Shown: positions 48,699 to 64,000 of the stretch, piece by piece
How the letters are laid out: each line of letters opens with the position of its first letter
Numbering within the stretch: the first letter of the stretch is position 1
Origin: Bacilli bacterium
GTDB taxonomy: Bacteria; Bacillota_I; Bacilli_A; RF39; UBA660
Direction of reading: 5' to 3'
Length of the DNA stretch: 64,000 bases
Assembly: GCA_045541255.1 (NCBI GenBank)
Contig: JAZQIU010000045.1
Coordinates: forward strand, 2,497 to 66,496
Notes under the pieces: generated by a model
What the model saw: only the letters and a program-made list of their open reading frames with translations
What the model was told of the DNA's origin: nothing
Database searches by the model: none
Position numbers and translations under genes: made by a program

Positions 48699-48727
48699 TT
48701 GAACTATTTTGATAAGTATAGTATTAT
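48699..48727 (+). promoter_or_regulatory. promoter of the surface-protein unit
   Basis: TTGAAC, 17-nt spacer, TATTAT. Confidence 0.5.
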
Positions 48728-48762
48728 TAAGATGTATAAAATAGAAAGTGAGAGGTTTTAAT

Positions 48763-51700
48763 ATGTGTAAAAAAACTTTCGATAAACTAAAATTAAATAA
48801 AATATTATTAGGAGTTTTGGTGTTTTTTGTAGCTAGTATAGTAGCTAGCGCTGGAAGTAATACATTAAGTTATTCAAATAATGTATTAAAATGGGAAATA
48901 GATGGTGGTAATGCAGCTTTTTGGGGAAATTCTAGGTGTTATAAAGATATTTATGTTCAATGTTCTGTTGTAGATAAAGCTTCTTCTAGTATAAGATTAG
49001 ATGCTAAGCCCTCTGATTCTAACAACGATTATTGTATTTCGACTGGAGGTTATACATGGGCAACTGGAAGTATAAATGTAAAAGACTATATTAATAATAC
49101 AGTATTACCAAATGGTGGTAAGGTTGTATGCTCTTTAAGTGCTTATAATTCTAAAAAAAACACTGAAAAGAAATTTGCTGAAACTTCTTTTACAATAGAA
49201 AAATCAACTTCTGCAGAAAAACCTTCTAATCAAACAGGAACAGATACTAATAAAAATCCTGTTAATAAAGTTCCACCAGTGTCAGAGGAACAAAAATGTA
49301 AAAATAATGGAAATTATTGGAATACTGATACTTCAAAAGCAAGTAAAGGTTGTTATAAATTAGATAAAGATAATTGTAATATTTTAGGATTATGTGGAAA
49401 AGAATCTAAATGCGATTCATATTGTAATGTTAAAGTTGTATTTGATCAAAATTATGGTTATGGGTTAGCATGTGATGCTGGTTTCACAGTTCCTACTGCT
49501 GGTGTGTGTGAAAAAACAGGAGTAACAGTAGGAAGCAGTGTTAATTTTCCAACTAGTTCATCAAATATGTATAGAAACGATCAAGGTCAATTAATAGGAT
49601 GGACTAGTGTTGTAACAAATGGTGTTCCAGATTGCTCTCATGGAGTAGTTAAAACAGATTTGTCAAAAGGAAATACTATTAATGCAAGTGTTGCGTTTTA
49701 TGCTTGTTATCAAGAAATATTTAATGCAACTCGTTATATTCAAAAAGATGCTGCTGCAGATGGTGGCACTGAAATTGAATGCGGTTTAGGTGTTGAAATA
49801 AAATATTGTAATAAAGAAAATGGTGTTGGTTATTGTTATTTTACTGATTCAGCTAATAATTCAAGAAAAGTTTACAGAAATAAATTAGCTAGCACACCAG
49901 CTGGTGCAGAAGCTACTTGTGATGGTAATGCAGAAGCTGTTGTAGAAGAAGAAGTAACTGATGATGAAATGGCTAAGAAGTTAAAAGCGTGTATTAGTAA
50001 TAATATGGTAAATAATCCAGAACCAAGTTATCGTACTTCTTATGAATATGATTTTTGTTATAATGAAAAATCTAAAGAAACTAATAGTTACGATAAAAGA
50101 TTAGAGAAAGTTTTAACTTTATTTACTTGTGATACTAAAAATGGTTATAGACTAGATGAGACATCTATAGATGAAGAAAAATATTGTAAAGATGGCAAAT
50201 GTGTTGCAACTTATTCTTTAGAATGTATAAAAGGTGAAAGAGGAGAAAGTAAACGTCCTACATTAGAGGTTACTCCAGCAAAAGCATCTGGTGGTGTTGG
50301 GTATATTGGAGTAAAAGCTAATGCTAAAGTGGGAAAAATTGTTGCATATTATGCAAGTAATGATTATTTAGCTCCTACAAATTCTAGTAGAGGTTGGGAA
50401 ACAGTATCATCAAATAGTTTTAAAATAGAAGCTACGCCTGGTGTTGTATATATTTGGGTTAAAGATAGTGAAGGTAATATAAGTAATGTAGTTAGTGGAG
50501 CGGTAATAGATACAGAAAATGCTAATACTACATTAAGAAATGTTGCAGTATATGATGCTAATGGTAATATTCAATCTTTAGCAGGATCTGGAACAGCATA
50601 TAAAGTAAATGATGTAACAGATAATAAATATGTAAGATTATCAAATGAATTAAACAAAGATAGTGAGATAATTGCTGATGGATTTAATCCATATGATATG
50701 GAATATAAGTTAGAAGTTAGTTCACCAACTGTTTCTGTTTATGCAACATTAACAAGTACTGACTCTAATTATGTAGCAGGTTATGAACCTAGAACTGTAA
50801 ATTTAAATTATGGTATTAATACAGTATTAATAAAAATAGTAAATAAAGAAGGTATAACAAGAACTTATACAATTTTAGTTACTAGAACAGATGATAGAAA
50901 AAGTGATAATACTTTAAGCGATATAAGTTTAAGTGTTGGTGAAATTAACTTTAATGCTAATGTAACTGATTATAAAATAGAAGTACCTAAAACAACAACT
51001 AGTATTGATGTAAATGCGACTATAGCAAGTGATAAAGCAAGTTATGTTAGTGGGTATGAACCTGAAAATGTTTTAATGGTGGGAAATACAACAGTTAAAT
51101 TAATAACAGTTAAAAGTGAAACAGGAAGAACAAGAACTTATGTATTAACTTTTGTAAAGGAAGGTACTGATACAATAACTAAAGAATCTTTACAATTGGA
51201 ATCATTAAAGATACCTGGCGTTAATGTAGCATTTGAAGAAGATGTTGCAAATTATAGTTTAAGTGTTGGATATGAAACTGATGTAATAGATATTAATACA
51301 GTTTTAAAAGATGATAATAGTATTATAGCTGTAAGTTTAAAGAAAAAGAATGATAGTGAATACAAAGTTGTTTCTAGTAAAGGTCTAGGATTAGATGTTG
51401 GAGAAAACTTTGTTGATATAAAAATTGTAGATAATGAAAATGAAGAAAGTCATTATAGATTGACTATTATCAGAAAAGAATTTGGTTTGGATATATCAAA
51501 AGATACATCATTAAAAGATTTAAGAGTTTTAAATCATGATATAGATTTTGATCCAAATAAAAAAGAATATACAATTAAAATCAAACAAGAAAAAAGTTTA
51601 GTAATTACTGCTGTTCCAAATAGCAATAGAGCAGAAGTATTTATAAGAGGAAATGATGAATTAACAGGCTTTAGTACTGTTAGAGTTAAAGTTGTTGCAG

Positions 51701-51867
51701 AAAATGGTGAATTTGAAACATATTCAATCGATATAAAGAAAGACGCATTTAATAAGACTATAGAGATTGCTTCAATAGTTGCTGGAGTTGTAATAATTTT
51801 AATAAGTAGTGGCATAATAATAGTAAAGAAAAAAGCTAAAGCTAACAGAGAGTATTTTGAGGAATAA
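48763..51867 (+). CDS. giant surface protein: Cys-rich N-region, several cadherin-like beta-sandwich repeats, C-terminal TM anchor
   Basis: ATG at 48763 and signal/TM 'ILLGVLVFFVASIVASA'. Repeats include 'DNTLSDISLSVGEINFNANVTDYKIEVPKTTTSIDVNATIASDKA' and 'TSLKDLRVLNHDIDFDPNKKEYTIKIKQEKSLVITAVPN'. C-terminal 'IASIVAGVVIILISSGIIIVKKK'. Confidence 0.7.
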   Translation: MCKKTFDKLKLNKILLGVLVFFVASIVASAGSNTLSYSNNVLKWEIDGGNAAFWGNSRCYKDIYVQCSVVDKASSSIRLDAKPSDSNNDYCISTGGYTWATGSINVKDYINNTVLPNGGKVVCSLSAYNSKKNTEKKFAETSFTIEKSTSAEKPSNQTGTDTNKNPVNKVPPVSEEQKCKNNGNYWNTDTSKASKGCYKLDKDNCNILGLCGKESKCDSYCNVKVVFDQNYGYGLACDAGFTVPTAGVCEKTGVTVGSSVNFPTSSSNMYRNDQGQLIGWTSVVTNGVPDCSHGVVKTDLSKGNTINASVAFYACYQEIFNATRYIQKDAAADGGTEIECGLGVEIKYCNKENGVGYCYFTDSANNSRKVYRNKLASTPAGAEATCDGNAEAVVEEEVTDDEMAKKLKACISNNMVNNPEPSYRTSYEYDFCYNEKSKETNSYDKRLEKVLTLFTCDTKNGYRLDETSIDEEKYCKDGKCVATYSLECIKGERGESKRPTLEVTPAKASGGVGYIGVKANAKVGKIVAYYASNDYLAPTNSSRGWETVSSNSFKIEATPGVVYIWVKDSEGNISNVVSGAVIDTENANTTLRNVAVYDANGNIQSLAGSGTAYKVNDVTDNKYVRLSNELNKDSEIIADGFNPYDMEYKLEVSSPTVSVYATLTSTDSNYVAGYEPRTVNLNYGINTVLIKIVNKEGITRTYTILVTRTDDRKSDNTLSDISLSVGEINFNANVTDYKIEVPKTTTSIDVNATIASDKASYVSGYEPENVLMVGNTTVKLITVKSETGRTRTYVLTFVKEGTDTITKESLQLESLKIPGVNVAFEEDVANYSLSVGYETDVIDINTVLKDDNSIIAVSLKKKNDSEYKVVSSKGLGLDVGENFVDIKIVDNENEESHYRLTIIRKEFGLDISKDTSLKDLRVLNHDIDFDPNKKEYTIKIKQEKSLVITAVPNSNRAEVFIRGNDELTGFSTVRVKVVAENGEFETYSIDIKKDAFNKTIEIASIVAGVVIILISSGIIIVKKKAKANREYFEE

Positions 51868-51879
51868 GGAGTGGTTATT

Positions 51880-52482
51880 ATGAAAAAGAAAATATTATTA
51901 AGTTTATTAATTATGGGATTGGTTGCTGCAAAAGTAAATGTTAATGCAGCAACTAGTGCTACTCCTGGTGATACAAACTATTCAACATTACAATCTTCTT
52001 ATAATGCTGGAATACAAAGTAAAACAATTTCAAGTGGGGATTGGATTACTATATATGGTAAATCAGTTTGTGATTCAAATGGAAGTTGTGAACATAGTTA
52101 TGTAACAGGTTTGAAAAAAAGGGAAGATGTATTAAGTAAAACAGTAAAATGTTCTGGTGGAGAAAAAAATATATCTTTTGATACAAATATAAGTAGTGGA
52201 CAAGCAGATAGTTATACAGATACAAGTGGGAATGCTGTTAAAAGTGCAACAGTATACTGGAGTGAAGATATATATGTAACATGTACTAGTGATAGTAATG
52301 GTAATATTCCATCTGCTAATGAAGGTACTACAAATATAGAAAATAATTATTCTGGTGCTACAACAACACAAAATCCACAAACTGGTGTAAATACATATTT
52401 TATAATTTTAAGTGTAGTTGCTGTTATATCTTATGCATTTATGATATTTGTAAAAAAATTCAATTTATTTAAAAAGATTTGA
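51880..52482 (+). CDS. secreted protein with sortase-type cell-wall sorting signal (NPQTG)
   Basis: Signal peptide 'LLSLLIMGLVAAKVNVNA'. The C-terminus has 'NPQTG', hydrophobic 'YFIILSVVAVISYAFMIFV' and basic 'KKFNLFKKI'. Confidence 0.65.
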   Translation: MKKKILLSLLIMGLVAAKVNVNAATSATPGDTNYSTLQSSYNAGIQSKTISSGDWITIYGKSVCDSNGSCEHSYVTGLKKREDVLSKTVKCSGGEKNISFDTNISSGQADSYTDTSGNAVKSATVYWSEDIYVTCTSDSNGNIPSANEGTTNIENNYSGATTTQNPQTGVNTYFIILSVVAVISYAFMIFVKKFNLFKKI

Positions 52483-52578: not shown

Positions 52579-53592
52579 ATGAAAAAAAATATATTATTAT
52601 TTATTATAGGTTTTTTACTTTTTCCTAATTTAATAAATGCAGAGCAAGTTAGTTATAGTGTAACAGCTAGTTGTAAAAGCAATTATAATTATGAATTTGT
52701 ATATGATAATCCTAGAAATTATTATTGTGCAAATGGTAATTCTTCTCCATATACAACTACTATACAAGATAGTTGTAATGATTTAAGAAATAGAATATGT
52801 AAGAACGATGTTCAAAAATGCTATATTGTTTTAGATTATGATTGTTCTAGAACTAGTAGTGGTGCTAAATTTAATACAACTACTAAGAAAACAACAACTA
52901 AGACTAGAACTACTAAAACTACCACAACAACTACTACAACTGTTCCAGTCAAAAGTAATACTAAATTGAAATCATTGACTTTATCGAGTGGTAGCATAGT
53001 ATTTAATTCAGACACTTATGAATATTCAATAAATGTTGAATCTACTGTAAATTCTATAGATGTTACGGCAGTACCTGAAGATGATACAAGTAAAGTAGAA
53101 ATAAAGGGTAATACTAATATAGATAATGGTAGTATTATTAGTATTATAGTTACTGGTAGTGATAATAGTACTAGTGAATATAAAATTAATGTAATGAAAG
53201 AAACTTATATTATGTCTAGTAATGCGAAATTAAGTTCTTTAAGTGTTAAAGGTTATGATATACCATTTAATTCTAAAATTTCTGATTATACTATTATTTT
53301 AGATTCTGAGGTTAGTGAATTAGATATTGATTATGAAGCAGAAGATGAAAAAGCTGTAGTTACTATAACTGGTAATTCTAATTTAACTAATGGTAGTAAA
53401 ATTGTTATTACGATAACTGCTGAAGATGGTACTGAAAATGTTTATAATTTAAATATTACTATGAAACAAAAATCTAATGCATTTACTATTTTGTTTATAA
53501 TCATCTTAATATTAGCGATTATTGCTGGTGGTTATTATGTTTATAAAAAATTTATACAAAGTAAGATGGGGGATAAATATGAATATGAATAA
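52579..53592 (+). CDS. surface protein: Cys-rich head, Thr-rich linker, two cadherin-like repeats, C-terminal TM
   Basis: Signal peptide. 'TTTKKTTTKTRTTKTTTTTTTT'. 'TKLKSLTLSSGSIVFNSDTYEYSINVESTVNSIDVTAVPEDD' and 'AKLSSLSVKGYDIPFNSKISDYTIILDSEVSELDIDYEAEDE'. TM 'FTILFIIILILAIIAGGYYVY'. Confidence 0.65.
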   Translation: MKKNILLFIIGFLLFPNLINAEQVSYSVTASCKSNYNYEFVYDNPRNYYCANGNSSPYTTTIQDSCNDLRNRICKNDVQKCYIVLDYDCSRTSSGAKFNTTTKKTTTKTRTTKTTTTTTTTVPVKSNTKLKSLTLSSGSIVFNSDTYEYSINVESTVNSIDVTAVPEDDTSKVEIKGNTNIDNGSIISIIVTGSDNSTSEYKINVMKETYIMSSNAKLSSLSVKGYDIPFNSKISDYTIILDSEVSELDIDYEAEDEKAVVTITGNSNLTNGSKIVITITAEDGTENVYNLNITMKQKSNAFTILFIIILILAIIAGGYYVYKKFIQSKMGDKYEYE

Positions 53593-54025
53593 AAAAAGAA
53601 TATTATTATTAAGTTTATTTATATTTTCATTTTTAGTGTTAGTACCTAGTGTGTTAGCTGATACTACTCAAGCAGTTGAATATGTTGCTGAGAATCCATG
53701 TGATGAAAATTCAATTAAAACTGTTATGAGATTATTTGGGTATGTATTATTAGTAGCGAGAATTGCAGTGCCATTAATAATAATAGGTTTGGGAACATTT
53801 GATTTATTTAAATCAGTTGTTGATAAAGATGAGAAGAGTTTAATGAAACAAATGAAACAATTAGGTATTCGAATATTAGCTGGTTTGATTGTTTTCTTTG
53901 TACCGAATATAGTAGCTGTAGTATTTAGTATGAGCGATAAATTAAATATTATTGAGACTGGGCAATATCAAACTTGTGCTGATTGTTTATTAAAACCATC
54001 ATCTTGTAGTGTTGTTGAAGATTAA
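53579..54025 (+). CDS. VirB2/TrbC-like two-TM pilin-like protein, paralogue 1
   Basis: ATG at 53579 overlaps the upstream gene end. It has a signal peptide, then TM-loop-TM 'VPLIIIGLGTFDLFKSVVDKDEKSLMKQMKQLGIRILAGLIVFFVPNIV'. Cys are present at both mature termini. Confidence 0.55.
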   Translation: MNMNKKRILLLSLFIFSFLVLVPSVLADTTQAVEYVAENPCDENSIKTVMRLFGYVLLVARIAVPLIIIGLGTFDLFKSVVDKDEKSLMKQMKQLGIRILAGLIVFFVPNIVAVVFSMSDKLNIIETGQYQTCADCLLKPSSCSVVED

Positions 54026-54120: not shown

Positions 54121-54381
54121 ATGAAAGAAGCAAGTGGAGAATTAAGTATGACTGCTATCGCAGTAGTTGCTATAGCTGCTGTTGGAGGTATTTTTATGAC
54201 ATTTGTTTGGCCACAATTAAAAGGTTCAATGATTGCAAAAACAAAATGTCAAAGTGCATATAATTGTACTGCTTGTACTGGTGCTGCTGCTGGAAAGGCT
54301 GGTACAAAAACTTGTACAGGTTACTATGATGCAGATGGTAAATCACAAACTGATGCTGCTGGATTTACTTGTGATTGTTAA
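54121..54381 (+). CDS. small Flp-like (class III signal peptide-like) Cys-rich protein
   Basis: 'MKEASG/ELSMTAIAVVAIAAVGGIF' resembles Flp-type prepilin heads ('G-xSMxEYGLLVALIAVV'). The tail carries 6 Cys and is Gly/Ala/Thr-rich. Confidence 0.4.
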   Translation: MKEASGELSMTAIAVVAIAAVGGIFMTFVWPQLKGSMIAKTKCQSAYNCTACTGAAAGKAGTKTCTGYYDADGKSQTDAAGFTCDC

Positions 54382-54409: not shown

Positions 54410-54886
54410 ATGAGAGAGGCTATTGGAGGAACTTGGTTATTTGGTTTGGTAATAACATTTATAGTGTTCTTTGCCTCTTTTTTAGCTGTTTCAATAAATT
54501 ATGCAAAGGCATTTGATATTAAAAATAATATTGTTGATTTAATTGGAAAATATGAAGGAAATAATGCTTGTGCTAGACAAAAAATAGGTGAATATTTAAA
54601 AGGTGTAGGTTATTTAGTTCCGGGGTATTGTCCAACTACTGATGAAGATGAGAATCCTTATGAATATATAGGTTATAATCTTGATGGAACTAAGGTAACT
54701 AGTGGAAAAGCATATTATTGTGTATCTAAGGATAGTGTAGATAGTACTACAGTAATTGACAAAAAGTTTTATAGAGTAGTTATATTTTTTAGAATTGATT
54801 TGCCTATGCTAGAAGAAATTACAACTTTTAGAATAAAGGGTGAGACTGAGTCAATATATTTTGCAAATGAATCTACAACATGTTAA
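54410..54886 (+). CDS. TadE/TadG-like pseudopilin-like protein
   Basis: N-terminus 'MREAIGGTWLFGLVITFIVFFASFLAVSINYAKAF' has the charged head, single TM and aromatic pattern of TadE-like proteins. Confidence 0.35.
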   Translation: MREAIGGTWLFGLVITFIVFFASFLAVSINYAKAFDIKNNIVDLIGKYEGNNACARQKIGEYLKGVGYLVPGYCPTTDEDENPYEYIGYNLDGTKVTSGKAYYCVSKDSVDSTTVIDKKFYRVVIFFRIDLPMLEEITTFRIKGETESIYFANESTTC

Positions 54887-54900: not shown

Positions 54901-55935
54901 ATGAATGTTATAGTAAGTAATGAAAGAAAGAATGAACTTAATAATTTAAATATAGATATTATAAAAAGTGTAGATGGTGTTTATACAGCAGAAGAATTAA
55001 TAGATATGTTTAATAATTTTTTCTTTAATAAGATGATTTTAGATATAACTTCTATTAAAGAGTATAGAGAATATAGTAATTTAAAGAAATTATTTGAAAG
55101 TATAGATAGTAAAAAAGTAATATTATATTTAAATGATATAAGTAATGATAAAGAATTTATAAGCGATTTAGTAACATTAGGAGTATATAATTTCACTATT
55201 AATTATAATGAACTTATAGAATTATTTAATAATCCTAGAGAGTTTAAAGATGTATCTAATTTACAAATTAGTAAAAGTTCTTATGAAATAAATAAAGAAA
55301 TAGATGAAGAATTAGGAATAAATCAATCTAAAGAATTTACTTTTGAAGATTTTACTTTACCAGATAAGTATGATGGTAATAAGAAAATTATAGGTGTTGT
55401 TAATTTAACAGAACATGCTGGGGCTACTACATTAGTTGTACAAATGATTAAACAATTAAATGTAGATTATAAAGCTATTGGTATTGAGATGAATAAGCAA
55501 GATTTTATTTTCTTTAATATCCCTAATTTATATTCTTGTACATCTAAGGAAGATGTTTTAAAGAAAATAAAAGAACATCAAGATGTAGATGCAGTAATCG
55601 TTGATTTAAATAATATAGATAGTAAAGAATTTTGTACTGATGTTATATACTTAATAGAGCCTGGTACTATTAAAATGACAAAGTTAATAAAAAGAAATGG
55701 AAAGATTTTTGAAGAACTTAGTGGTGAGAAGATTATTCTTAATAGAACTAATATGGATGAAAGTCAGGTTGCTGAGTTTGAGGTTGAAAGTAAAATAAAA
55801 GTATTTAGTGTTATTTCTAATTTTAGAGATAATTTAGATAGAGTTATAAGTGTTGATAAATTATTAGTAAAGTTAGGATATACTAAATGTGGAAAAAAAT
55901 TAAAAAAACGTGGTTTATTTGGTAAAAGATTTTAA
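54901..55935 (+). CDS. ParA/MinD-fold protein with degenerate P-loop and N-terminal receiver-like domain (TadZ/CpaE-like layout)
   Basis: 'KKIIGVVNLTEHAGATTLVVQMIKQL' sits where the deviant Walker A (KGGxGKT) is expected. 'DAVIVDLN' is Walker B-like. Confidence 0.35.
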   Translation: MNVIVSNERKNELNNLNIDIIKSVDGVYTAEELIDMFNNFFFNKMILDITSIKEYREYSNLKKLFESIDSKKVILYLNDISNDKEFISDLVTLGVYNFTINYNELIELFNNPREFKDVSNLQISKSSYEINKEIDEELGINQSKEFTFEDFTLPDKYDGNKKIIGVVNLTEHAGATTLVVQMIKQLNVDYKAIGIEMNKQDFIFFNIPNLYSCTSKEDVLKKIKEHQDVDAVIVDLNNIDSKEFCTDVIYLIEPGTIKMTKLIKRNGKIFEELSGEKIILNRTNMDESQVAEFEVESKIKVFSVISNFRDNLDRVISVDKLLVKLGYTKCGKKLKKRGLFGKRF

Positions 55936-56440: not shown

Positions 56441-56794
56441 ATGAAAAGTAATAAGAAATTTATATATATATTTATGATTATGTTTTTAGTAATGTTTGGT
56501 TTTAAAACTATTGTTTTTGCAGAAGGGTTAAGTTGTAATAGTTGGGGGACTGTTCTTAAAGATTTACAAAATGTTTTTGATTTTGTAAAAATAATTGTTC
56601 CTTTATTAATAATTGGTTTAAGTACTTATGATTTTATTAAAGCAGTAACTGCTAAAGATGATAAGGGATTAAAAAAAGCTTTTCAAATACTTTTAAAAAG
56701 ATTTGTATATGCAATAATACTTTTCTTTTTACCAGTATTAATAAATCTACTTTTAGAATTAGTAGCTGTAAATAGTAATGTTTGTATAGAATAG
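56441..56794 (+). CDS. VirB2/TrbC-like two-TM pilin-like protein, paralogue 3
   Basis: Signal peptide 'FIYIFMIMFLVMFGFKTIVFA', then 'VPLLIIGLSTYDFIKAVTAKDDKGLKKAFQILLKRFVYAIILFFLPVLI'. Cys in 'GLSCNS' and 'SNVCIE'. Confidence 0.55.
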   Translation: MKSNKKFIYIFMIMFLVMFGFKTIVFAEGLSCNSWGTVLKDLQNVFDFVKIIVPLLIIGLSTYDFIKAVTAKDDKGLKKAFQILLKRFVYAIILFFLPVLINLLLELVAVNSNVCIE

Positions 56795-56804: not shown

Positions 56805-59114
56805 ATGAATTTATTTAGTTTAGGTGGTTTTTTTAGTGATATTTGGATGAGCATTTGGCTAAGTTTAAATGATTTTGTTTATTCTATAATAAGTGTTTTA
56901 TATCAAGTGTTTGAAGGTGTGGCAAATGTCAATTTGTTTAGTGAAGAGGTATTTAAAGATATCACTTCAAGAATTTATATAATAATGGGAATAGCAATGC
57001 TATTTATTTTTGCGTATAATTTAATTTTGATGATTATAAATCCAGAAGAAAAAAAGAGTACAGGTCAAACTACTAAGATAGTAAAAGAAACTATTATATC
57101 TTTAGTTTTGGTTATTTTATTACCTACAATTTTTAATTATATGAGTATATTTCAAAAACACATATTAGAATCTCAAATTATATCTCAAATAATATTGGGG
57201 GATTCAGGTGGCACCAATGCTGAAGAATGTGATTTTTCTGAATATACAATTTATAATGAATATAATATAGGTAATGTAGAAGACACTTCTTTCTTAAATT
57301 GGAAATCATGGGCTTCTTTAGGAATATATCAAATATATTTAAGTACTAAAGATTCTACTCCAACTACTATGTTGACTGAATCTTGCGAATATTATAGTGA
57401 AGAATTGACTCCATCTCAAAGGGGTGCATATGCTTTGCCAACAACTATATTTCAAGCTTTTTACCATCCTACTAGAGTAGATTATAATTCTTGTGAGGAG
57501 TGGATTGAAACTTGTAAAGATGATAAAAGTTGTGATGCCGCTGGTATAACAGAAGATGAAGATAAAGAAATGTGTGCATATTATGTATATGATGTAAAAT
57601 TAGCTAAATATATGGGAAATATTGCTCCATTTAATAGCGAATCTAAATTTTATAGTAAAGTTAAGGCTGATGATGGTACATTTGAATTTAATGGATTAAT
57701 GGCATTAGCGGCTGGTGTTTTAGGTTTATATATGTTTGTTTGTTATACAATTGCAATCGGTACACGTGTTGCTAAACTAGGTTTTTTACAATTAATATCA
57801 CCAATCGCTGTTATGATGAGAATTATACCTAAACAGAAAGAGGCTATGTTTGACAAATGGTTGAAACATTTAATAAATACATATTTAGATGTATTTATAA
57901 GATTAATGATTATATATTTCTCTTTATTTGCAATTAGTTTAGTTCCTGATGTAATTGATGCTTTATTTGAAAGTATTGAAGGAAGTTGGTATGTTGCTGC
58001 ATTATCAGCAGTGGTAGTTATATTAGGTATATTAATGTTTGCTCAAAAAGCTCCAGATTTATTTAAAGAATTCTTTGGTAATAGTGGAAACTTTGCTCTT
58101 AAGAGTCCTAGTAAACAACTTGGTGAAAACAAGTATGCTATGGGAGCTTTAGGTGCTATAGGAGGAGCAGCATCTGGAGCTGTTAAAAATTTTGGTAAGG
58201 GAAATGTTTTTGGCGGTTTTGGCTCTGGTTTAGTTCGTGGAGCACGAGCAGGTTATAAGTCTCAAAATTTTAGAGATTTAAAATATAATACTTCTTCTGC
58301 TGTAGATCGTGTATTACAAGCAAGAGATGAAAGAGATATCAGACAAGAATATGATAAGAAGAATGGTTGGGGAGCATATAGAGCTAAAGCTTTGAAAAAT
58401 TCTTTTGAAAGATGGACTTCAGGAGATTCTTTTGCATCTTTAACTGCTAAAAGTAATGATGTTAAAAAAATGCAACAAGCTTATGATAGTATATTAAAGT
58501 TAGTAGAAGGTAAAATAGATGAGTTGCCGGATGCCTTTTCATTTGGAGGTAGAAGCTACGGGTATTATAAAAGAGAGGCTGACAGTGCGGTAGCGGCACA
58601 TGAAAATTTTGATAGTAGTAGATATGCGCAAGAATACAAAAAAACTCATTCAGTTTCTGATAGTGCTGCACAAATTGCGGCTGAAAGAGAAAAAGATAGA
58701 TTAAATCTTGCGGCAGGAGTGGCCCAAGAGAATGCTCGATTAGTTAGAGAAGCTATTGCTGATGCTGTAATTGCAGAAAGAGGCGGTGGACCAAATGGTA
58801 TATCGTCTAAACCAATAAAAATTGAAGGTATGCAAACTGTTTCGTTGGATTCTGAAGGAATTGCAACTATTGAGAAAACTATTAAAGATGGAATGGTTAG
58901 TACTGCTAAAGAAGTTAAGGGTGTTGGAGATAAAATTGAAGAAGCTAATAGTTTATTTGAAAAAAATTCTGTTATGCTTAGTGAGAACGCTAGAAATGAT
59001 ATAGAATCACACCGAGATGAGATTAGAAAAAATAATGGCATTTTAAAAGGAGAACTTGGACATATTAGTTCAGAACTTGCAAAATTATCTGAATTGAAAA
59101 AAAGTGATAAATAG
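56805..59114 (+). CDS. VirB6/TrbL-like polytopic membrane protein with long soluble Gly-rich/coiled C-terminus
   Basis: Multiple TM segments lie in the first ~430 aa. It sits between the pilin-like gene and the VirB3/VirB4-like genes. The C-terminal half is hydrophilic ('GALGAIGGAASGAVKNFGKG...'). Confidence 0.55.
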   Translation: MNLFSLGGFFSDIWMSIWLSLNDFVYSIISVLYQVFEGVANVNLFSEEVFKDITSRIYIIMGIAMLFIFAYNLILMIINPEEKKSTGQTTKIVKETIISLVLVILLPTIFNYMSIFQKHILESQIISQIILGDSGGTNAEECDFSEYTIYNEYNIGNVEDTSFLNWKSWASLGIYQIYLSTKDSTPTTMLTESCEYYSEELTPSQRGAYALPTTIFQAFYHPTRVDYNSCEEWIETCKDDKSCDAAGITEDEDKEMCAYYVYDVKLAKYMGNIAPFNSESKFYSKVKADDGTFEFNGLMALAAGVLGLYMFVCYTIAIGTRVAKLGFLQLISPIAVMMRIIPKQKEAMFDKWLKHLINTYLDVFIRLMIIYFSLFAISLVPDVIDALFESIEGSWYVAALSAVVVILGILMFAQKAPDLFKEFFGNSGNFALKSPSKQLGENKYAMGALGAIGGAASGAVKNFGKGNVFGGFGSGLVRGARAGYKSQNFRDLKYNTSSAVDRVLQARDERDIRQEYDKKNGWGAYRAKALKNSFERWTSGDSFASLTAKSNDVKKMQQAYDSILKLVEGKIDELPDAFSFGGRSYGYYKREADSAVAAHENFDSSRYAQEYKKTHSVSDSAAQIAAEREKDRLNLAAGVAQENARLVREAIADAVIAERGGGPNGISSKPIKIEGMQTVSLDSEGIATIEKTIKDGMVSTAKEVKGVGDKIEEANSLFEKNSVMLSENARNDIESHRDEIRKNNGILKGELGHISSELAKLSELKKSDK

Positions 59115-59125
59115 GAGGAATAAAA

Positions 59126-59440
59126 ATGGGTAATAATGGATATTTGATACCAGCGAATTCGAAGAAGTCTATGTTGATACTTGGCTTCTTTAATCCTACT
59201 GATTTAGTTATATTTGGTACTGGTTGTGTTATAACATTCTTATTGTTATTTATAATGGATACAAGCAATTTAAAGCAAGCTTTTATGATAATAACTCCTG
59301 CTTTAATAAGTGCTTTCTTGGTACTTCCAGTACCAAATCATCATAATATAAGAACTTTTATAGGTAATGTTTATAAATACTTTACTAATAGAAGAAGTTA
59401 TTATTGGAGAGGTTGGTGTATGAATCGTGGCGAAAAATAA
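59126..59440 (+). CDS. PrgI/VirB3-like small membrane protein
   Basis: 104 aa. 'YLIPANSKKSMLILGFFNPTDLVIFGTGCVITFLLLF' plus a second TM. Position is immediately 5' of the VirB4-like genes. Confidence 0.5.
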   Translation: MGNNGYLIPANSKKSMLILGFFNPTDLVIFGTGCVITFLLLFIMDTSNLKQAFMIITPALISAFLVLPVPNHHNIRTFIGNVYKYFTNRRSYYWRGWCMNRGEK

Positions 59441-59987
59441 TAATACTAGCAAATATACAGAAGATTGGGTTCCTATTAAAAATATAAAGAATGGTATGAT
59501 ACAGTTAGATAATGATTATTATGTGACTGGAGTTAGAATAGAACCTAAAAATATATTTATTCTTGATTATCAAGAACAAAATAATATTATATTTAATTTA
59601 AGAAATTTTTATAATGTAATTGATTATGAATTTTGGTTGGTTGTTTGTGATAGACCCGTTGATATAAATATGTATTTAGCACAATTACAATTAATGTATA
59701 ATAATGTTCAAAGTCAACAAATAAGAAAATTAATTAAACAAGATATAGATAAAGGTGAAATGTTTAGAAATACAACTGTAAATGCAGTTGATACTGAATA
59801 TTATATTTTGTTTAGAGATAAGAAAACTGAAGTATTACAAAAGAGAATTCATACTTTAATAAGTAATTTAGCAACAAGTGGTTTAAATTCGAGACAAGTA
59901 AGTGATGAAGATTTAAGAGTAGTAATAGATAGTTTCTTTAATGGGAATATGAGATCAGAGTTTGGGACGGTGATGAGTAGTGTCTAA
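59427..59987 (+). CDS. 186-aa protein resembling a detached N-terminal domain of Gram-positive VirB4 ATPases
   Basis: GTG start overlaps the upstream gene by 14 nt. 'EDWVPIKNIKNGMIQLDNDYYVTGVRIEPKNIFILDYQEQNNIIFNLRNFY' follows the 'PIKxIxxGxIxxxDxxYxxxIxIxPxNfxL' pattern I associate with VirB4/PrgJ/TcpF N-termini. Confidence 0.45.
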   Translation: MAKNNNTSKYTEDWVPIKNIKNGMIQLDNDYYVTGVRIEPKNIFILDYQEQNNIIFNLRNFYNVIDYEFWLVVCDRPVDINMYLAQLQLMYNNVQSQQIRKLIKQDIDKGEMFRNTTVNAVDTEYYILFRDKKTEVLQKRIHTLISNLATSGLNSRQVSDEDLRVVIDSFFNGNMRSEFGTVMSSV

Positions 59988-61782
59988 TACATTTAAGAGT
60001 GAAATAGCTCCAAAGGGAATAGATTTTAAATTAAATGATTTTGTAATAAGTGATAAATATTGTACTATTTTAACAATTATTAATTATCCTAAATTAATAG
60101 GTCCTGGATTTTTAAGTAATGTTACTAATTTACCTGGTGTAAAAGTGGTTGTTAAACATATTCCAATTGAATTTAGTACAATGAGTAAAATGATTAATAA
60201 AGAGATAGCTGATTTAAAAGAAAGATATCAACATGAAAATGATAGAACAATGCAAGAAAGTATTCGTCAAGATTATGAATCTTTAGAAAGTTTTGTTTCT
60301 ATGTTAGCAGCTACTCAATCTAAAATCTTTGATTTTCAAATGCATGTAATGTTATCTGCTGATTCTAAAGAAGAATTAGAAATGAAAAAGATGCAAACTA
60401 GAAATTATTTAGATGCTTTAGGTATGCGTGGTATTCCTATGATGTTTGAACAAGAAAAAGTTCTTAAATCTATGATACCAATATTTCCTAAACAAGATAT
60501 AGAAGAAAGAGTTGGTATTCCTATACCAAGTCCAACTATAGCAGCAATGTATCCATTTGTATTTGATAGTATAAAAGATCCGGGAGGAGAATTTACCGCT
60601 CCAACTTTATTAGGAGTAGATTTCTCAGGTGGTGTTGTATTATTTAATCAATTCTTATATCAAACTAAAAAAGAATTTAATAGAAATAATGCTAATTTAA
60701 TTATTTTGGGTACAAGTGGTAGTGGTAAATCAACAGCTGCAAAATTAATGCTTAGAACTCATATTAGAAATGGGTGTCAATTAATTTGTATTGACCCGGA
60801 AGGTGAGTTAGAAGAAATGGCCAAATCTTTTGGTGGAGACTTTATTGATTTAGGTAAAGGTGGTCAGTTTGGTATTATAAATCCATTAGAAGTAGTTGTT
60901 GATGCTGATGAAGAAGAATTAAAGAACGGTTTAGGATATACTGTATTAACTCGTACTTTACAATCTTTAAAAGCATTCTTGAAATATTATAGTCCTGATA
61001 TAGAAGAAGATGTTCTTGCTATGTTTAGTGAGGTTGTTCAAGATACTTATAAACGTTTTAAAATAGATTTTAATACTGATTTTAGTGGTTTTACTTCTAA
61101 AGATTATCCAACATTTGATGATGTATATAGTACTATTAAAGGTAAACTTTTATCTATGCCTGAAGCAACTCGTGAAAAAGATGTAATGGAAAGATTAGAG
61201 TTAAAGATTCGTCCTTTTGTTAAGGAATTAAGATATTACTTTAATGGTCATACTACTATAAGTCAAGATAGTGACTTTATGGTATTTAATATTCGTGAAT
61301 TAATGAATAGTGATGAAAGTATTAGAAATGCATTATTCTTTAATATATTAAAATATGCTTGGGGATTATGTTTAGATCCTAGTGTTAATACTGTATTAAT
61401 GGTAGATGAAGCCCATGTATTATTAAGTGGTAGAAATGAATTAGGTGCTGAGTTCTTAGCTCAAATGCAAAGACGTAGTAGAAAGTATAATACTGGTACT
61501 ATAATAATTACTCAACAACCTACAGATTTTGCTGCTGATAATGTTATAGTTCATGGTAAAGCAATATTTGACAATGCTTCATATTATTTAGTTATGGGAT
61601 TAAAAAAACAAGCAGTTGAAGATTTATCTAGATTAATAGATTTAAATGATAACGAAAAAGAAAGTATTAAAGGTTATAGTCAAGGAGAAGCATTATTTGT
61701 ATGTGGAAGTAGACGTATGAGAATTAATGTTGTCCTTACTCAAGAAGAATTAGATTCGTTTGGTTCTGGTGGAGGATTTTAA
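59980..61782 (+). CDS. VirB4-like (TraE/PrgJ/ConE class) T4SS ATPase
   Basis: 'IAPKGIDFKLNDFVISDKYCTILTIINYP' entry motif. Walker A 'ILGTSGSGKST', Walker B 'VLMVDEAHVLL', and 'IIITQQPTDF'. It overlaps the upstream ORF by 8 nt in a different frame. Confidence 0.75.
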   Translation: MSNTFKSEIAPKGIDFKLNDFVISDKYCTILTIINYPKLIGPGFLSNVTNLPGVKVVVKHIPIEFSTMSKMINKEIADLKERYQHENDRTMQESIRQDYESLESFVSMLAATQSKIFDFQMHVMLSADSKEELEMKKMQTRNYLDALGMRGIPMMFEQEKVLKSMIPIFPKQDIEERVGIPIPSPTIAAMYPFVFDSIKDPGGEFTAPTLLGVDFSGGVVLFNQFLYQTKKEFNRNNANLIILGTSGSGKSTAAKLMLRTHIRNGCQLICIDPEGELEEMAKSFGGDFIDLGKGGQFGIINPLEVVVDADEEELKNGLGYTVLTRTLQSLKAFLKYYSPDIEEDVLAMFSEVVQDTYKRFKIDFNTDFSGFTSKDYPTFDDVYSTIKGKLLSMPEATREKDVMERLELKIRPFVKELRYYFNGHTTISQDSDFMVFNIRELMNSDESIRNALFFNILKYAWGLCLDPSVNTVLMVDEAHVLLSGRNELGAEFLAQMQRRSRKYNTGTIIITQQPTDFAADNVIVHGKAIFDNASYYLVMGLKKQAVEDLSRLIDLNDNEKESIKGYSQGEALFVCGSRRMRINVVLTQEELDSFGSGGGF

Positions 61783-61797: not shown

Positions 61798-63867
61798 ATG
61801 AAAAAAAAGTTATTTAAAAGTTTACTTGTTTTAAGTTTTCTTTTAATAACGTTTTTTTCTATTAAAGTTAGTGTTTATGCAGCAAATTTTGCATATTCTA
61901 ATTTTGATTGGGATAAACTGTTAAAACAAAATCAAAATTTTTGGACTTCTGTTTGTCCTAAAGATGATACAGAATGTGTTGATGAAGTTTTAAAAACTAA
62001 AGAAAAATTTTATACAAGATTATATGAAATATTGGATCAAGTTCAACGAAAATATGGTTATGTAGATGATAATATAATTATTGCTACTGTATTTTATGGT
62101 TTAAATGCAGATTCGTTTGCTGATCCAAATATAAATGATTATAATCCTTATAATTTAGATGAAGATGAGAATACAAAAAATAAATTCATTGGTAGTGATG
62201 ATGGAGATAGAAATACAGCAAAATCTTATTTTGATAAAGAAACAGATAGTTTAAAAAGTTTGATAAATAATTTTATTGGGTATAGTACTATTTGTTATGG
62301 AGAAGCTGATGAATCTCCTCAAACTTATACTGATTCAAATGGAAATGCTTATCAAGCATGTTCAATTTCAACAATAAAAGTTTTAGATGGAAAATGCGTT
62401 GCTGAAATAGATAAATATAAAGGAACCTTTTTTGACTCATTAGGTCTGTCTTTTTTAGGAACAGAAAATGAAAAAAAATGTACAGAAGCCGCTAGTGAAT
62501 TAGGTTATAAAGCTCCTTATTTGAAAACGACTAAAGAAAAAGAAGTTAGTGAAGAATTTTTTTATGATTTTTTAGAAACAAGTGATTATTTTGATAATAA
62601 AAAACATTTAAGAAGTTATTTTGCTGTAGTATTACAACATAGTGGATATGAAACAATGGAAGAATTTTATAAAGCAGCAGAAAATGATCCTGAATTGTTA
62701 GAAAAATATAAAAATGATATTATTGAAGCAAGAAAAAATATTATACAAGGTATTAAGGATGTCCTTAAAATGTATGGTGAATTTTCTAAAGTTTCTGAAT
62801 CATTTAATAATGCTAGTTCTAATCTTTATTGGTGGCCTATAGGAAGTAATGAAACTACTGAATCTGGTGGAACTTTAATGGCTATTGGAGAACCAGCAAA
62901 AACGTCTATCTCTAGTAAATATGGTTATAGAACACATCCTGTAACAGGAGCATTAAATTCTAAACATAATGGAATCGATATTCTTGGAGAACAAGGTGTT
63001 ACTAATGTAATTGCCAGCAAAGATGGAGTAGTTTATAAATCTTCTAAAAGTGATGGTATTGTATGTGAAGATGGTGGAGATAAATCTTGTGGTGGTGGTT
63101 TTGGTAACTATGTAATTATTCAACATGTTGATAATAATTTTACAGTTTACGCACATTTAGCAAAAGACAGTATTACTGTTGAAATGGGAGATAGTGTTAC
63201 AAGAGGTCAAGTTATCGGTAAAGTTGGTAATAGTGGTAGTTCTACAGGAGCACATTTACATTTTGAAGTAAGAGTAGGTGGAAGTGATTCGTCTTCTACA
63301 CAAGATCCTTTAAATTTTGTTTCTGCTGATAATCCAAGGCCTACAGGAGCAGGAAGTCAATTATTAGAATGGATTGGAAGTATGGAAGGTACTGGGCCTG
63401 TTGAAGGCGATTATTATAAGGTTTACCAAAATAAAGGTGATATTCCTACAGTTGGGCATGGTATAACATTAAAATATAATGCTGATGCATTTAGAGCACA
63501 CGGTATAAATCCAGCCACTTTATCTGTTGGAAGTTTAGTACCTAAAGCAATTGTGGATGCTATTTATTTTGAAGATGTAGAAGGTAGATTAAATAATATA
63601 AGAGGTATGTTATCTACTAAAGGTGTTACTTTAAATGAAAATCAAATTGGTGCTTTAGCGAGTTTACAATTTAACTGTGGAAATATAAATGGGTTCTTTG
63701 AAGCTTATGAAAAATATAGTTCTACAGAAGCATTATGTAGTAATTGGTGGGAACAAAAAGCTTTACATGATTCGTCAGGTACTTATTTGCCTGGTTTAAA
63801 GAAAAGAAGAATAGCAGAATGTGATTTATTTGTAAATGGTACTTATAATATGAACGTTTATGGATAA
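61798..63867 (+). CDS. secreted bifunctional cell-wall hydrolase: M23 peptidase + lysozyme-like domain (VirB1 functional analogue)
   Basis: Signal peptide. M23 motifs 'HNGIDI', 'GNYVIIQH', 'GNSGSSTGAHLHFEV'. C-terminal 'MEGTGPVEGDYYKVYQNKGDIPTVGHGITL' resembles the phage-type lysozyme catalytic region. Confidence 0.75.
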   Translation: MKKKLFKSLLVLSFLLITFFSIKVSVYAANFAYSNFDWDKLLKQNQNFWTSVCPKDDTECVDEVLKTKEKFYTRLYEILDQVQRKYGYVDDNIIIATVFYGLNADSFADPNINDYNPYNLDEDENTKNKFIGSDDGDRNTAKSYFDKETDSLKSLINNFIGYSTICYGEADESPQTYTDSNGNAYQACSISTIKVLDGKCVAEIDKYKGTFFDSLGLSFLGTENEKKCTEAASELGYKAPYLKTTKEKEVSEEFFYDFLETSDYFDNKKHLRSYFAVVLQHSGYETMEEFYKAAENDPELLEKYKNDIIEARKNIIQGIKDVLKMYGEFSKVSESFNNASSNLYWWPIGSNETTESGGTLMAIGEPAKTSISSKYGYRTHPVTGALNSKHNGIDILGEQGVTNVIASKDGVVYKSSKSDGIVCEDGGDKSCGGGFGNYVIIQHVDNNFTVYAHLAKDSITVEMGDSVTRGQVIGKVGNSGSSTGAHLHFEVRVGGSDSSSTQDPLNFVSADNPRPTGAGSQLLEWIGSMEGTGPVEGDYYKVYQNKGDIPTVGHGITLKYNADAFRAHGINPATLSVGSLVPKAIVDAIYFEDVEGRLNNIRGMLSTKGVTLNENQIGALASLQFNCGNINGFFEAYEKYSSTEALCSNWWEQKALHDSSGTYLPGLKKRRIAECDLFVNGTYNMNVYG

Positions 63868-63880
63868 TGGGGTTGATAAA

Positions 63881-64000
63881 ATGGAAAAAAAGAAAGATTA
63901 TACTTTATTAATAATCATTTGTGTTATTTTATTGTGTATAGTTGTATTATTATTTTTAAATAATGATTCTAGTGATAGTAATATTTTGAGTGAAGAACCT
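63881..64000 (+). CDS. membrane-anchored protein, 3' end beyond window
   Basis: MEKKKDYTLLIIICVILLCIVVLLFLNNDSSDSN... is a single N-terminal TM. Its position after the hydrolase is where VirB8-like/TcpC-like proteins occur in Gram-positive T4SS loci. Confidence 0.4.
   Translation, partial: MEKKKDYTLLIIICVILLCIVVLLFLNNDSSDSNILSEEP

Follow-up and report, generated by a model that had tools for sequence, protein, structure and literature searches.

The cluster at the right-hand end of the analysed DNA (a stretch of 64,000 nucleotides, hereafter the window) is, on balance, best read as the first three quarters of a ~21-kb monoderm conjugation-type T4SS (MPF_FATA) that is chromosomally fixed and vertically inherited, and not as an ICE. 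The host belongs to a lineage of uncultured gut Bacilli with 25% GC, which, going by deposited names, is probably the GTDB order RF39, with a presumably genome-reduced lifestyle. Open reading frames and gene order (Table 1) match those of the original prediction, and the co-oriented block contains a full monoderm parts list (three VirB2-like proteins, a VirB6-like protein, a VirB3/PrgI-like protein, a TrsD-like protein, VirB4, and an M23 + lysozyme hydrolase), preceded on its 5' side by cadherin-like and sortase-anchored surface proteins and then by a lineage-specific module of three genes (E-F-G). The order of genes across the loci of relatives is [p]-E-F-G-p-p-J-K-L-M-N-O-P-Q-R-S (p, pilin-like) and is conserved over 80 species. 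Matches to VirB4 were found in at least 548 GTDB species-representative genomes, with the best 80 at 74-99% identity, and the breadth of the T4SS cluster amounts to more than 7000 protein clusters. In its behaviour the cluster resembles a core gene set: its motor is better conserved than RNase J, and its exposed parts diversify quickly. The occurrence of a relaxase-less, fixed, and vertically inherited T4SS across hundreds of species is suggestive of a domesticated apparatus for transfer between cells and not of a mobile element.

Table 1. Genes of the cluster that lie in the window, with window coordinates
Gene	Position	Strand	Description
A	48748..51867	+	1039 aa; putative adhesin with a signal/TM segment, 4 Cadherin-like domains (beta-sandwich) and a TM anchor at the C-terminus
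B	51871..52482	+	203 aa, secreted; NPQTG sorting signal (sortase substrate)
C	52579..53592	+	337 aa surface protein; Thr-rich linker, 2 Cadherin-like domains, C-terminal TM
D	53579..54025	+	VirB2-like pilin paralogue 1; signal peptide and two-TM hairpin
E	54121..54381	+	86 aa; conserved MKEA[ST]GEL N-terminus, hydrophobic helix, Cys-rich variable tail; putative accessory protein
F	54410..54886	+	158 aa; conserved MRE[AS]IGG N-terminus; putative accessory protein, pilin-like in topology only
G	54901..55935	+	344 aa, cytoplasmic; receiver/flavodoxin-like beta-alpha N-terminal part, MinD/ParA-fold C-terminal part
H	55999..56352	+	VirB2-like pilin paralogue 2; own promoter-like site; downstream hairpin and T-run
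I	56441..56794	+	VirB2-like pilin paralogue 3
J	56805..59114	+	769 aa, VirB6-like polytopic; N-terminal pilin-like module, TrbL-like core, hypervariable hydrophilic C-terminal half
K	59126..59440	+	104 aa, VirB3/PrgI/TrsC-like, two TM
L	59427..59987	+	186 aa, TrsD-like; VirB4 N-terminal domain as its own polypeptide
M	59980..61782	+	600 aa VirB4 ATPase; Walker A GTSGSGKST, Walker B VLMVDEAH
N	61798..63867	+	689 aa secreted peptidoglycan hydrolase in the VirB1 role; M23 endopeptidase domain plus GH24-type lysozyme domain
O	63881..64000 (5' end only)	+	Bitopic; candidate VirB8-like scaffold; L007 homologue 168 aa

The ATPase (M) is VirB4-class, as predicted, with matches to PDB 4AG5 (E = 1.5e-57), NF045975 (1.1e-104), and CD1110 (3.1e-50), and also to AAA_10 and P-loop_TraG. 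Its clade is isolated, with the next relatives at no more than 45% identity; those among them that bear names, at ~30-33%, are from Erysipelotrichales and a Mycoplasmatota plasmid, and the best plasmid match is at 29%. The formerly unexplained protein L is the VirB4 N-terminal domain encoded separately (TrsD-like as defined in PMC12102498): it matches positions 96-278 of NF045975 (VirB4_plasma; 1.2e-17), its counterparts in relatives match PF26593 (TraC-like), and its HMM recovers a 227-aa protein located 5' of VirB4 in pBMB67 (4.8e-25). The split of VirB4 into L and M is conserved in all 86 of 86 loci. A PrgI/VirB3-like identity for K is likewise borne out by a match to TcpE (0.016) and by a match between the HMM of the K family and the annotated PrgI-family protein of pBMB67 (9.6e-7).

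The VirB6-like polytopic protein of the original prediction (J) contains five TM segments and matches NF045848 (1.4e-15), NF045889 (2.1e-10), and TrbL_4 (2e-4), the first and the last below cut-off; its middle and C-terminal parts could not be aligned at the DNA level with L007, the locus of a relative whose VirB4 is 99% identical. The triplicated pilin-like genes D, H, and I align as clear paralogues, each encoding a VirB2-like hairpin of two TM segments, and their family matches are weak and all below cut-off (D, NF045849 (Mbov_0395 pilin-like), 0.005; H, PF18895, 3.1e-4; I, PF18895, 0.0054); a fourth pilin-like module forms the N-terminus of J (PF18895 at residues 57-112). H is associated with a TTGACA-17-TAAAAT arrangement at 55941 and a hairpin at ~56367. 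The promoter-like hexamers by which transcription units had been delimited occur in the window at chance level (114 observed versus 115.9 expected), and the two terminators described as strong can be seen by eye as AT-rich hairpins with T-runs but fall under the scanner threshold.

Matches to PF12733 in A (1.9e-19, in four stretches) and C (9.6e-15), together with TM segments at residues 19-37 and 1007-1025 of A and 301-319 of C, agree with the predicted cadherin-like surface proteins, and many relatives likewise carry a Cadherin-like protein at the cluster's 5' end. The sorting signal of B is present in full (NPQTG, then a hydrophobic stretch, then the basic tail KKFNLFKKI), and this C-terminus aligns with the sorting-signal region of IsdC (3e-5). 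Compared with L007, A diverges fast (76% identity across half of its length), as does B (46% identity, dN/dS ~0.85). The M23 + lysozyme composition of hydrolase N was recovered as PF01551 (2.9e-24) and PF00959 (1.3e-8).

The E-F-G module fits its earlier description less well. E and F had been called Flp-like and TadE-like, yet a Flp_Fap or TadE match was obtained for 0 of 22 family members. Pfam and NCBIfam searches with E gave no match; wherever the gene was seen (37 of 58 loci) it accompanies F and G immediately 5' of the pilin-like genes, and it is present in multiple copies in some lineages. The model of F (AF2 pLDDT 72.6) consists of an N-terminal 44-residue helix followed by a beta-sheet and has no match among PDB folds (best E 1.2). 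For G, termed degenerate ParA-like, the resemblance holds at the level of the fold (AF2 pLDDT 75.5; Foldseek matches to MinD 4V02 at 4.6e-6 and also to ParA 3EA0, ParF, and FlhG) but not in Pfam, which matches none of the 120 homologues listed (1859 found). G is catalytically degenerate, with a P-loop that lacks the lysine (EHAGATT, with invariant G174, T176, and T177), and probably positions or nucleates assembly instead of hydrolysing ATP.

Past the window, the cluster continues in relatives with P (bitopic), Q (NlpC/P60), R (a lipoprotein), and S (a VirD4-type T4CP). In L007 the cluster ends after S at a glycosyltransferase gene (GT2), which is followed by rpsJ, and the same order is present in L001-L006, L095, and L098. 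The T4CP and the right-hand end of the cluster were observed in relatives only; the source contig exceeds the window by ~3.6 kb. S exceeds the cut-off of the CD1115-family model (NF045973, 303 bits versus 250), and a T4CP is present in 41 of the 48 loci with enough downstream sequence, with none detected nearby in the other 7. The coupling protein was thus reported as absent because the window ends before it; in relatives it lies ~5.5 kb further on. O and P, both putatively VirB8-like, are paralogous, and neither matched PDB sequences.

Among known systems, T4SSs of the MPF_FATA class come closest, namely those of Mycoplasma ICEs and of pAW63-type plasmids, together with the T4SS of Patescibacteria, which lacks a relaxase. 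The resemblance to Mycoplasma ICE genes noted in the original prediction is reflected in NCBIfam matches, all of them below family cut-offs. The order VirB6 - PrgI - VirB4 N-terminal-like - VirB4 and the T4CP are shared with the conjugative plasmid pBMB67, which also bears a Tad-type ATPase module. In Patescibacteria, VirB2-like pilin arrays occur with relaxase-less chromosomal T4SSs, the parts list is mirrored (VirB2-like arrays, VirB6, PrgI, TrsD, VirB4), and a peptidase and lysozyme directly follow virB4, as they do here (PMC12102498). The combination therefore cannot be called undescribed, given that its layout is annotated in pBMB67 and that pilin arrays with relaxase-less T4SSs have been described for Patescibacteria (PMC12102498). 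The Patescibacteria T4SS is needed for epibiotic growth. Its T4CP is usually remote, unlike the one inside the present cluster, and was non-essential in the one strain tested (PMC12102498).

In the proposed mechanism, the adhesins would grip a neighbouring cell, the two hydrolases would locally open the cell wall, the TrsD-like and VirB3-like proteins would tether VirB4 to the VirB6-like channel, VirB4 would assemble and energise a conduit of which the VirB2-like proteins are part, and the coupling protein would deliver the substrate into it. DNA is tentatively the most likely cargo, through relaxase-independent transfer or with a relaxase encoded elsewhere (cf. the transfer driven by Mycoplasma ICEs); a possible but less probable choice is protein or some other substrate, with the machine co-opted as in Patescibacteria. 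As an account of the cluster as a whole, it is unlikely, although to be taken seriously, that the same machine was co-opted for a non-conjugative, fitness-critical role such as delivering effectors to host cells or to bacteria nearby, or acquiring material from them; the model for this is the Patescibacteria T4SS. The widespread, vertical, and relaxase-less nature of the cluster, the higher conservation of its motor relative to RNase J, the fast evolution of exposed components, and the parts list shared with Patescibacteria (PMC12102498) would all suit such a role. However, a conjugation-type T4CP above the CD1115-family cut-off is retained within the cluster, no gene could be recognised as a candidate for an effector or immunity function, and an episymbiotic lifestyle is undocumented for the host lineage. 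To our knowledge, the characterised T4SSs of monoderms are conjugative, which also counts against co-option.

Whether the apparatus is fixed or is the transfer module of an ICE had been left as alternatives, and the first is supported at the expense of the second. Fixation is favoured because the flanks are conserved, no mobility genes or att repeats were found in the sequence examined, and the ATPase is under very strong purifying selection. Synteny within the genus extends to both flanks, RNase J upstream and GT2-rpsJ downstream, and they are kept across species-level divergence: the junction of RNase J with the cluster is retained in L089 (RNase J 85%) and L090 (82%), and the GT2 flank in L009, L010, L012, and L015, with S10 beyond it in two of these (L010 and L012). 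Identities in the UMGS1124 genome are 96% for VirB4, versus 82% for RNase J, 75% for GT2, and 94% for S10. No relaxase or integrase, and also no transposase, was found among window ORFs of at least 120 aa (which are housekeeping), in the flanks of L001-L006, L095, and L098 as annotated with Pfam over 10 kb, or among the L007 ORFs that were read. A search for att-like direct repeats flanking the cluster found none, the only tRNA genes in the window (at 13.8 and 16.6 kb) are not adjacent to the cluster, and neither GC content nor GC skew sets the cluster apart from the remaining window.

Selection also differs between parts of the cluster. K, L, and M are under very strong purifying selection (dN/dS 0.017-0.095 for M and 0.07-0.14 for L), and VirB4 evolves more slowly than RNase J; the surface parts diverge fast, as expected for partner recognition. 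In most of the five comparisons, dN/dS lies at 0.5-1.0 for A, B, E, J, and N. An ICE transfer module, active or recently immobilised, with its relaxase and recombinase outside the examined sequence, is accordingly improbable; VirB4 also forms a clade apart from all plasmid and ICE relatives (no more than 45% identity). The observations in its favour are that Mycoplasma ICE proteins make up the nearest HMM families, that the nearest named homologues belong to Erysipelotrichales and a Mycoplasmatota plasmid, that the chromosomal site of the cluster is a different one in more distant relatives (which could reflect rearrangement or old mobility), and that dS relative to L007 is mosaic (0.14-0.35 for H-M, 0.5-0.9 for A-G and N), so that recombination or between-lineage exchange of part of the locus has taken place.

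Slightly more improbable still is a competence T4SS that imports DNA in the manner of Helicobacter ComB or archaeal Ced. The relaxase-less, chromosomal character of the cluster and a weak match of VirB4 to CedD (2e-9) are in line with DNA uptake, but the cluster retains a VirD4-type T4CP, which ComB systems are not known to have; a canonical GFxxxE prepilin elsewhere in the window (16062-16556) points instead to a conventional Com/T4P-type route. It is very improbable that the cluster, read here as a fixed conjugation-type T4SS, lacks a transport function and either is a remnant in decay or serves adhesion only: several components match known families below cut-offs only and no gene was called in a 2-kb gap at the expected place of the T4CP in L095, but every ORF is intact, the Walker motifs are preserved, K, L, and M are strongly constrained, and the gene order is maintained across the 80 species.

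Judged from its protein sequences, the co-oriented cluster (ORFs A-O) is a T4SS of the monoderm MPF_FATA kind. The original prediction depended on the 600-aa ATPase M being of the VirB4 class, and because M matches VirB4 in both a profile search against PDB (4AG5, 1.5e-57) and a family model (NF045975, 1e-104), it passes on that point; a further match to CD1110 (3e-50) and the AAA_10 and P-loop_TraG domains, both over Pfam cut-offs, are likewise those of a VirB4-family ATPase. On the VirB4 model, the 186-aa protein L covers positions 96-278 and M covers 294-891, and a TraC-like domain (PF26593) was found on L in relatives, so that L is the VirB4 N-terminal domain encoded as a separate polypeptide. 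The L/M split is not a frameshift, since it is kept in all related loci (86/86) and in the Bacillus plasmid pBMB67; the single ~890-aa ATPase of Mycoplasma ICEs corresponds to K, L and M combined, and the division into K, L and M matches the TrsC/TrsD/TrsE arrangement discussed in PMC12102498. The small membrane protein K, which adjoins VirB4, is VirB3/PrgI-like as predicted, given its two TM segments and the match of its family HMM to the annotated PrgI-family protein of pBMB67 (9.6e-7); its Pfam TcpE match is weak. The proposal of a polytopic VirB6-like channel protein for J is consistent with its five TM segments and with matches to NF045848 (1.4e-15; 57 bits, cut-off 90) and TrbL_4 (2e-4; 21, cut-off 27), both of which are below cut-off. 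The M23 and Phage_lysozyme domains described for N were both found over Pfam cut-offs, and N is predicted to be the cell-wall hydrolase (VirB1 role).

The end of the cluster, which lies past the window, was read from relatives, mainly from a locus whose VirB4 is 99% identical (L007). A predicted VirD4-type coupling protein (T4CP), S, is found downstream in these relatives and not within the window itself, and the coupling protein reported as missing was therefore lost only to the window edge. A T4CP was found in 41/48 loci. In L007, S is followed by a glycosyltransferase gene and then rpsJ, and the order of L007 is common to other relatives (L001-L006, L095, L098). Profiles of O and P had no match among PDB sequences; these paralogues are candidates for a VirB8-like role. 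At the expected T4CP site of L095, no gene was called in a 2-kb gap that may reflect a pseudogene or an assembly problem, and L097 (FZPS01000096.1), in which sporulation genes are mixed with a truncated cluster, was set aside as it looks like a chimeric assembly.

Positions and properties of features in the window and in compared loci
Feature	Sequence	Position	Length (aa)	Description
Cluster ORFs A-O	window	48.7-64.0 kb		15 ORFs, all co-oriented
H	window	55999-56352		pilin-like paralogue
J, pilin-like start	window	56805-57230 region		N-terminal part
Region of mosaic dS	window	55999-61782 region		compared with L007
Prepilin	window	16062-16556		canonical GFxxxE; TIGR02532 29.3 vs cut-off 16.3; N_methyl 1.3e-7
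Three ORFs after prepilin	window	to 20113	168, 208, 553	no family match
Dockerin protein and next gene	window	20405-23506	611, 417	SagB-like glucosaminidase region + C-terminal dockerin; Cadherin-like protein
PrsA-like rotamase gene	window	24-26 kb		minus strand
Second DUF87 ATPase	window	26320-28164	614	HerA-like
O	L007		168	bitopic; directly after hydrolase N
P	L007		164	bitopic, paralogue of O
Q	L007		557	TM + NlpC/P60, weak match
R	L007		226	lipoprotein-like
S	L007		760	VirD4-type T4CP; PF02534 2.8e-57; NF045973 (CD1115 family) 303 bits vs cut-off 250
Adhesin and sortase	pCW3 (L088)	17972-22661		SpaA-type sortase-dependent adhesin + class D sortase
Gap at T4CP site	L095	17393-19425		no gene called

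The surface proteins and pilin-like genes were recovered much as they had been described. The Cadherin-like surface proteins carry four (A, 1039 aa) and two (C, 337 aa) Cadherin-like beta-sandwich domains, each with a C-terminal TM anchor, and in the sorting-signal protein B the C-terminal NPQTG motif precedes a hydrophobic segment and a basic tail. A Cadherin-like protein also follows the dockerin protein elsewhere in the window, so that the T4SS cluster is not the only place in this genome where such proteins are encoded. In pCW3, the adhesin and sortase lie a few kb upstream of the tcp conjugation locus, so that genes for sortase-anchored surface proteins close to a Gram-positive T4SS have a precedent. 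The three predicted pilin-like paralogues D, H and I are VirB2-like two-helix hairpins, with weak matches to PF18895 and to the Mycoplasma "pilin-like conjugal transfer protein" model. Because H and J share an MNLFSL start and the paralogues align with the first ~140 residues of J, the latter looks like a pilin-VirB6 fusion with an N-terminal pilin-like module.

The accessory module E-F-G fared differently. Flp-like and TadE-like identities, as proposed for E and F, were not supported, since none of 22 family members (0/22) matched the Flp_Fap/TadE Pfam models and the model of F (an N-terminal helix of 44 residues, then beta-sheet) had no significant PDB fold match; only a generic pilin-like topology remains for the two. 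E and F have a common, conserved N-terminus (M[KR]E[AS]xG), always travel with G, and are multiplied in other sub-lineages (e.g., E-E-E-F-F-G in L042, L045, L047, L069, L075 and others). Such sub-lineages also lack the N-O-P genes or have others in their place; the accessory genes of the T4SS differ from clade to clade. The description of G as a degenerate ParA-like protein holds at the level of the fold, because the protein combines a MinD/ParA fold with a P-loop lacking lysine (EHAGATT; G174, T176 and T177 invariant). Its model (pLDDT 75.5) has an N-terminal beta-alpha domain (receiver/flavodoxin-like) and a C-terminal MinD/ParA-type domain, with MinD (4V02, 4.6e-6), ParA (3EA0), ParF and FlhG as top fold matches; TadZ (3FKQ) was absent among the top 50, and the G profile had no match among PDB sequences. 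Likening G to the AAA ATPase of pBMB67 was abandoned after hhalign aligned the P-loop only (7.8% probability). The two-domain build of G is reminiscent of TadZ/CpaE, and E and F resemble Tad/Flp components in their small size and in having a hydrophobic helix after a short polar N-terminus and a Gly. However, the cluster does not belong with Tad/Flp pili: no TadA-type ATPase (T2SSE-type), TadB/C platform or prepilin peptidase (A24) was found in the cluster or window. The prepilin gene near 16 kb and the ORFs after it may form a pseudopilin set of the Com/T4P type that is distinct from the T4SS; the prepilin itself implies that a prepilin peptidase is encoded at another place in the genome.

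Promoter-like hexamers, which had been said to bound the transcription units, were not enriched when compared with shuffled sequence (114 found vs 115.9 in shuffles). The two claimed strong terminators are visible as hairpins with T-runs; they are AT-rich and below the scanner's GC threshold. The five-unit transcription model, now based on intergenic gaps and these two hairpins only, is plausible.

Between the ICE transfer module and the chromosomally fixed apparatus that the original prediction had left side by side, the evidence argues against a recent ICE and fits a vertically inherited core system, as indicated by the lack of mobility genes and repeats, the kept junctions, the breadth and isolation of the clade, and the dN/dS of VirB4. 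No relaxase, integrase or transposase was found among the Pfam-annotated neighbours of L001-L006, L095 and L098, in L007, or among window ORFs of at least 120 aa, which are housekeeping genes; a relaxase linked to the T4SS, as in a strict conjugative element, was thus absent from the neighbourhoods and window ORFs searched. No tRNA gene adjoins the cluster, also as first noted, and searches for att-like flanking repeats (L001, L004) gave only chance-level AT-rich matches. The left junction, at the RNase J gene, is kept in L089 and L090, and the right junction, at a glycosyltransferase gene (GT2), in L009, L010, L012 and L015, with S10 after GT2 in L010 and L012. The cluster DNA (25-31% GC, GC skew strongly positive) is like the rest of the window. 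Across the whole window the skew is 0.2-0.47 and nearly all genes are on the + strand, the exception being the PrsA-like rotamase gene; this pattern fits extreme leading-strand gene bias. With no recombinase in its flanks, no repeats, conserved junctions and uniform composition, the cluster does not qualify as an ICE. More distant relatives hold it at other loci.

A protein search with VirB4 returned more than 7000 close relatives, and the gene is present in no fewer than 548 species-representative genomes (74-99% identity for the best 80), deposited as uncultured Bacilli/Tenericutes (including CAG:582 and CAG:605). Gut sources of the VirB4-bearing genomes include human, rabbit, ruminant, mouse and chicken, and these uncultured gut genomes probably belong to the GTDB order RF39. 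Past this clade, VirB4 identity is 45% at first and at most 35% beyond that, with Erysipelotrichales and a Mycoplasmatota plasmid as the named neighbours outside it and 29% for the best plasmid match. In the UMGS1124 genome, identity to the window is 96% for VirB4, 82% for RNase J, 75% for GT2 and 94% for S10. The dN/dS values are 0.017-0.095 for VirB4 (M) and 0.07-0.14 for L, and 0.5-1.0 for A, B, E, J and N in most of five comparisons; the central and C-terminal parts of J are not alignable with those of L007 even at the DNA level. The dS values against L007 are 0.14-0.35 for H, I, K, L and M and 0.5-0.9 for A-G, J and N, a mosaic that points to exchange of part of the locus among lineages by recombination, or to codon constraint of an unusual kind; recombination appears to have touched the locus.

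Among known systems, the cluster resembles pBMB67 (pAW63-type, Bacillus thuringiensis) in its core order (VirB6/TrbL, PrgI, VirB4 N-terminal-like, VirB4) and its CD1115-family T4CP; the C. difficile CTn2 family (CD1110/CD1115) is of the same class, and S is linked to it by passing the CD1115 cut-off. Local family HMMs matched pBMB67 for K (1e-6), L (5e-25), M (3e-93) and S (2e-91), those for the pilins, E, F, G, J, N, O, P, Q and R had no match in this plasmid, and a 126-aa hypothetical protein occupies the position expected for the pilin-like gene. However, VirB4 of pBMB67 is only 29% identical to that of the window, and the plasmid is mobile with a MobP3 relaxase beside its T4CP, whereas the cluster here is relaxase-less, chromosomal and syntenic, with three pilin-like paralogues, a pilin-like module on VirB6 and the T4CP at its far end. 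Near its T4SS, pBMB67 also has an AAA-family ATPase and a T2SS/T4P-type ATPase module, while the cluster contains no T2SS/T4P-type ATPase. The analogy with pCW3 (MPF_FA, Tcp) was dropped because no family HMM matched that plasmid.

Mycoplasma ICEs (ICEA/ICEB; CDS15 pilin-like, CDS16, CDS17 VirB4, CDS5 T4CP) supply the best NCBIfam matches, namely Mbov_0395 for D and H (16.5, cut-off 40), MMCAP2_0566 (57, cut-off 90) and Mbov_0396 (40.6, cut-off 70) for J, and Mbov_0397 for L and M together (1e-104; 350.9, cut-off 590). These elements are mobile and patchy in distribution and carry a DDE transposase (CDS22), whereas the cluster is fixed and without a transposase; their VirB4 is one ~890-aa protein in place of three ORFs (K, L, M), and the wall hydrolases and sortase/cadherin-like proteins are a further difference of the cluster. 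With scores below cut-offs, a split ATPase and no DDE transposase, it is not a Mycoplasma ICE transfer module. Transfer of ICEA needs CDS5, 15, 16 and 17 together with a surface lipoprotein and a partition-type protein (PMC6030558), the last two of which echo A-C and G here; the ICEA model assumes a relaxase, no homologue of which is named, and only CDS5 and CDS17 are reported to have conjugation-related homologues (PMC6030558).

The T4SS of Patescibacteria (CPR), which nearly the whole lineage carries on the chromosome, derives from the MPF_FATA class and has no relaxase (Quinonero-Coronel et al. 2025, PMC12102498); it is thought to be co-opted. It comprises arrays of divergent VirB2-like pilins (PF18895), VirB6, PrgI, a separate TrsD and VirB4, and in S. 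epibionticum virB4 is directly followed by genes for a peptidase and a lysozyme (PMC12102498). Compared by parts lists alone, the cluster is alike in being chromosomal and relaxase-less with the same parts (PMC12102498). It differs in its host, a Bacillota (Bacilli) lineage with sortase substrates, in having the T4CP inside the cluster, and in its Cadherin-like adhesins and E-F-G module, which are not reported for the Patescibacteria T4SS. No CPR names were among the nearest VirB4 representatives looked up, which were mostly metagenomic proteins.

In a working model of the apparatus, the Cadherin-like and sortase-anchored proteins would make cell contact, N and Q would open the wall, and VirB4, with the TrsD-like and VirB3-like proteins, would dock on the VirB6-like channel and assemble a conduit containing the VirB2-like proteins. 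The T4CP would select the cargo, and G, being catalytically degenerate, may position or scaffold. DNA is the default reading of the cargo, to which we would give a little less than an even chance, because a T4CP of the conjugation family is kept in the cluster, the nearest HMM families are those of Mycoplasma ICEs, and ICEA is transferred without a named relaxase. A co-opted, non-DNA role comes next, somewhat less likely than DNA, and the remaining readings are rated lower; the core-gene behaviour and parts list also match, by analogy, the relaxase-less Patescibacteria T4SS. It seems unlikely that in this lineage (probably RF39) a conjugation machine has been domesticated into an essential apparatus that works between cells without a relaxase, parallel to or sharing ancestry with that of Patescibacteria. 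If true, such domestication would mean that a common group of uncultured gut bacteria in humans and animals depends obligately on contact with other cells, as episymbionts or parasites; the CPR system could then have its monoderm source, or a sister, in this lineage, and E-F-G would be a new assembly or positioning sub-system.

To our knowledge, Gram-positive conjugation-type T4SSs are known almost only from mobile elements, and a complete, chromosomally fixed T4SS without relaxase or recombinase in the regions searched is unusual. That it is conserved in hundreds of species within a prevalent, uncultured lineage of the gut, and more tightly constrained than RNase J, argues for a core function between cells. 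The cluster would be a Bacillota counterpart to the enigmatic Patescibacteria T4SS, and therefore offers a comparative approach to what a relaxase-less monoderm T4SS transports. Its distinctive features are chromosomal fixation in a Bacillota lineage, the VirB2-like triplication with the apparent pilin-VirB6 fusion, the E-F-G module, and an extremely conserved motor set against rapid turnover of exposed parts, the hypervariable ones among which (A-C, the J C-terminus, N, E) are obvious places to look for determinants of partner specificity. No relevant paper on RF39 and type IV secretion was found in the literature searched, an absence that does not prove the system undescribed. Elsewhere in the window, the second DUF87 ATPase matched anti-phage-associated HerA models at 1e-45, well under their cut-offs.
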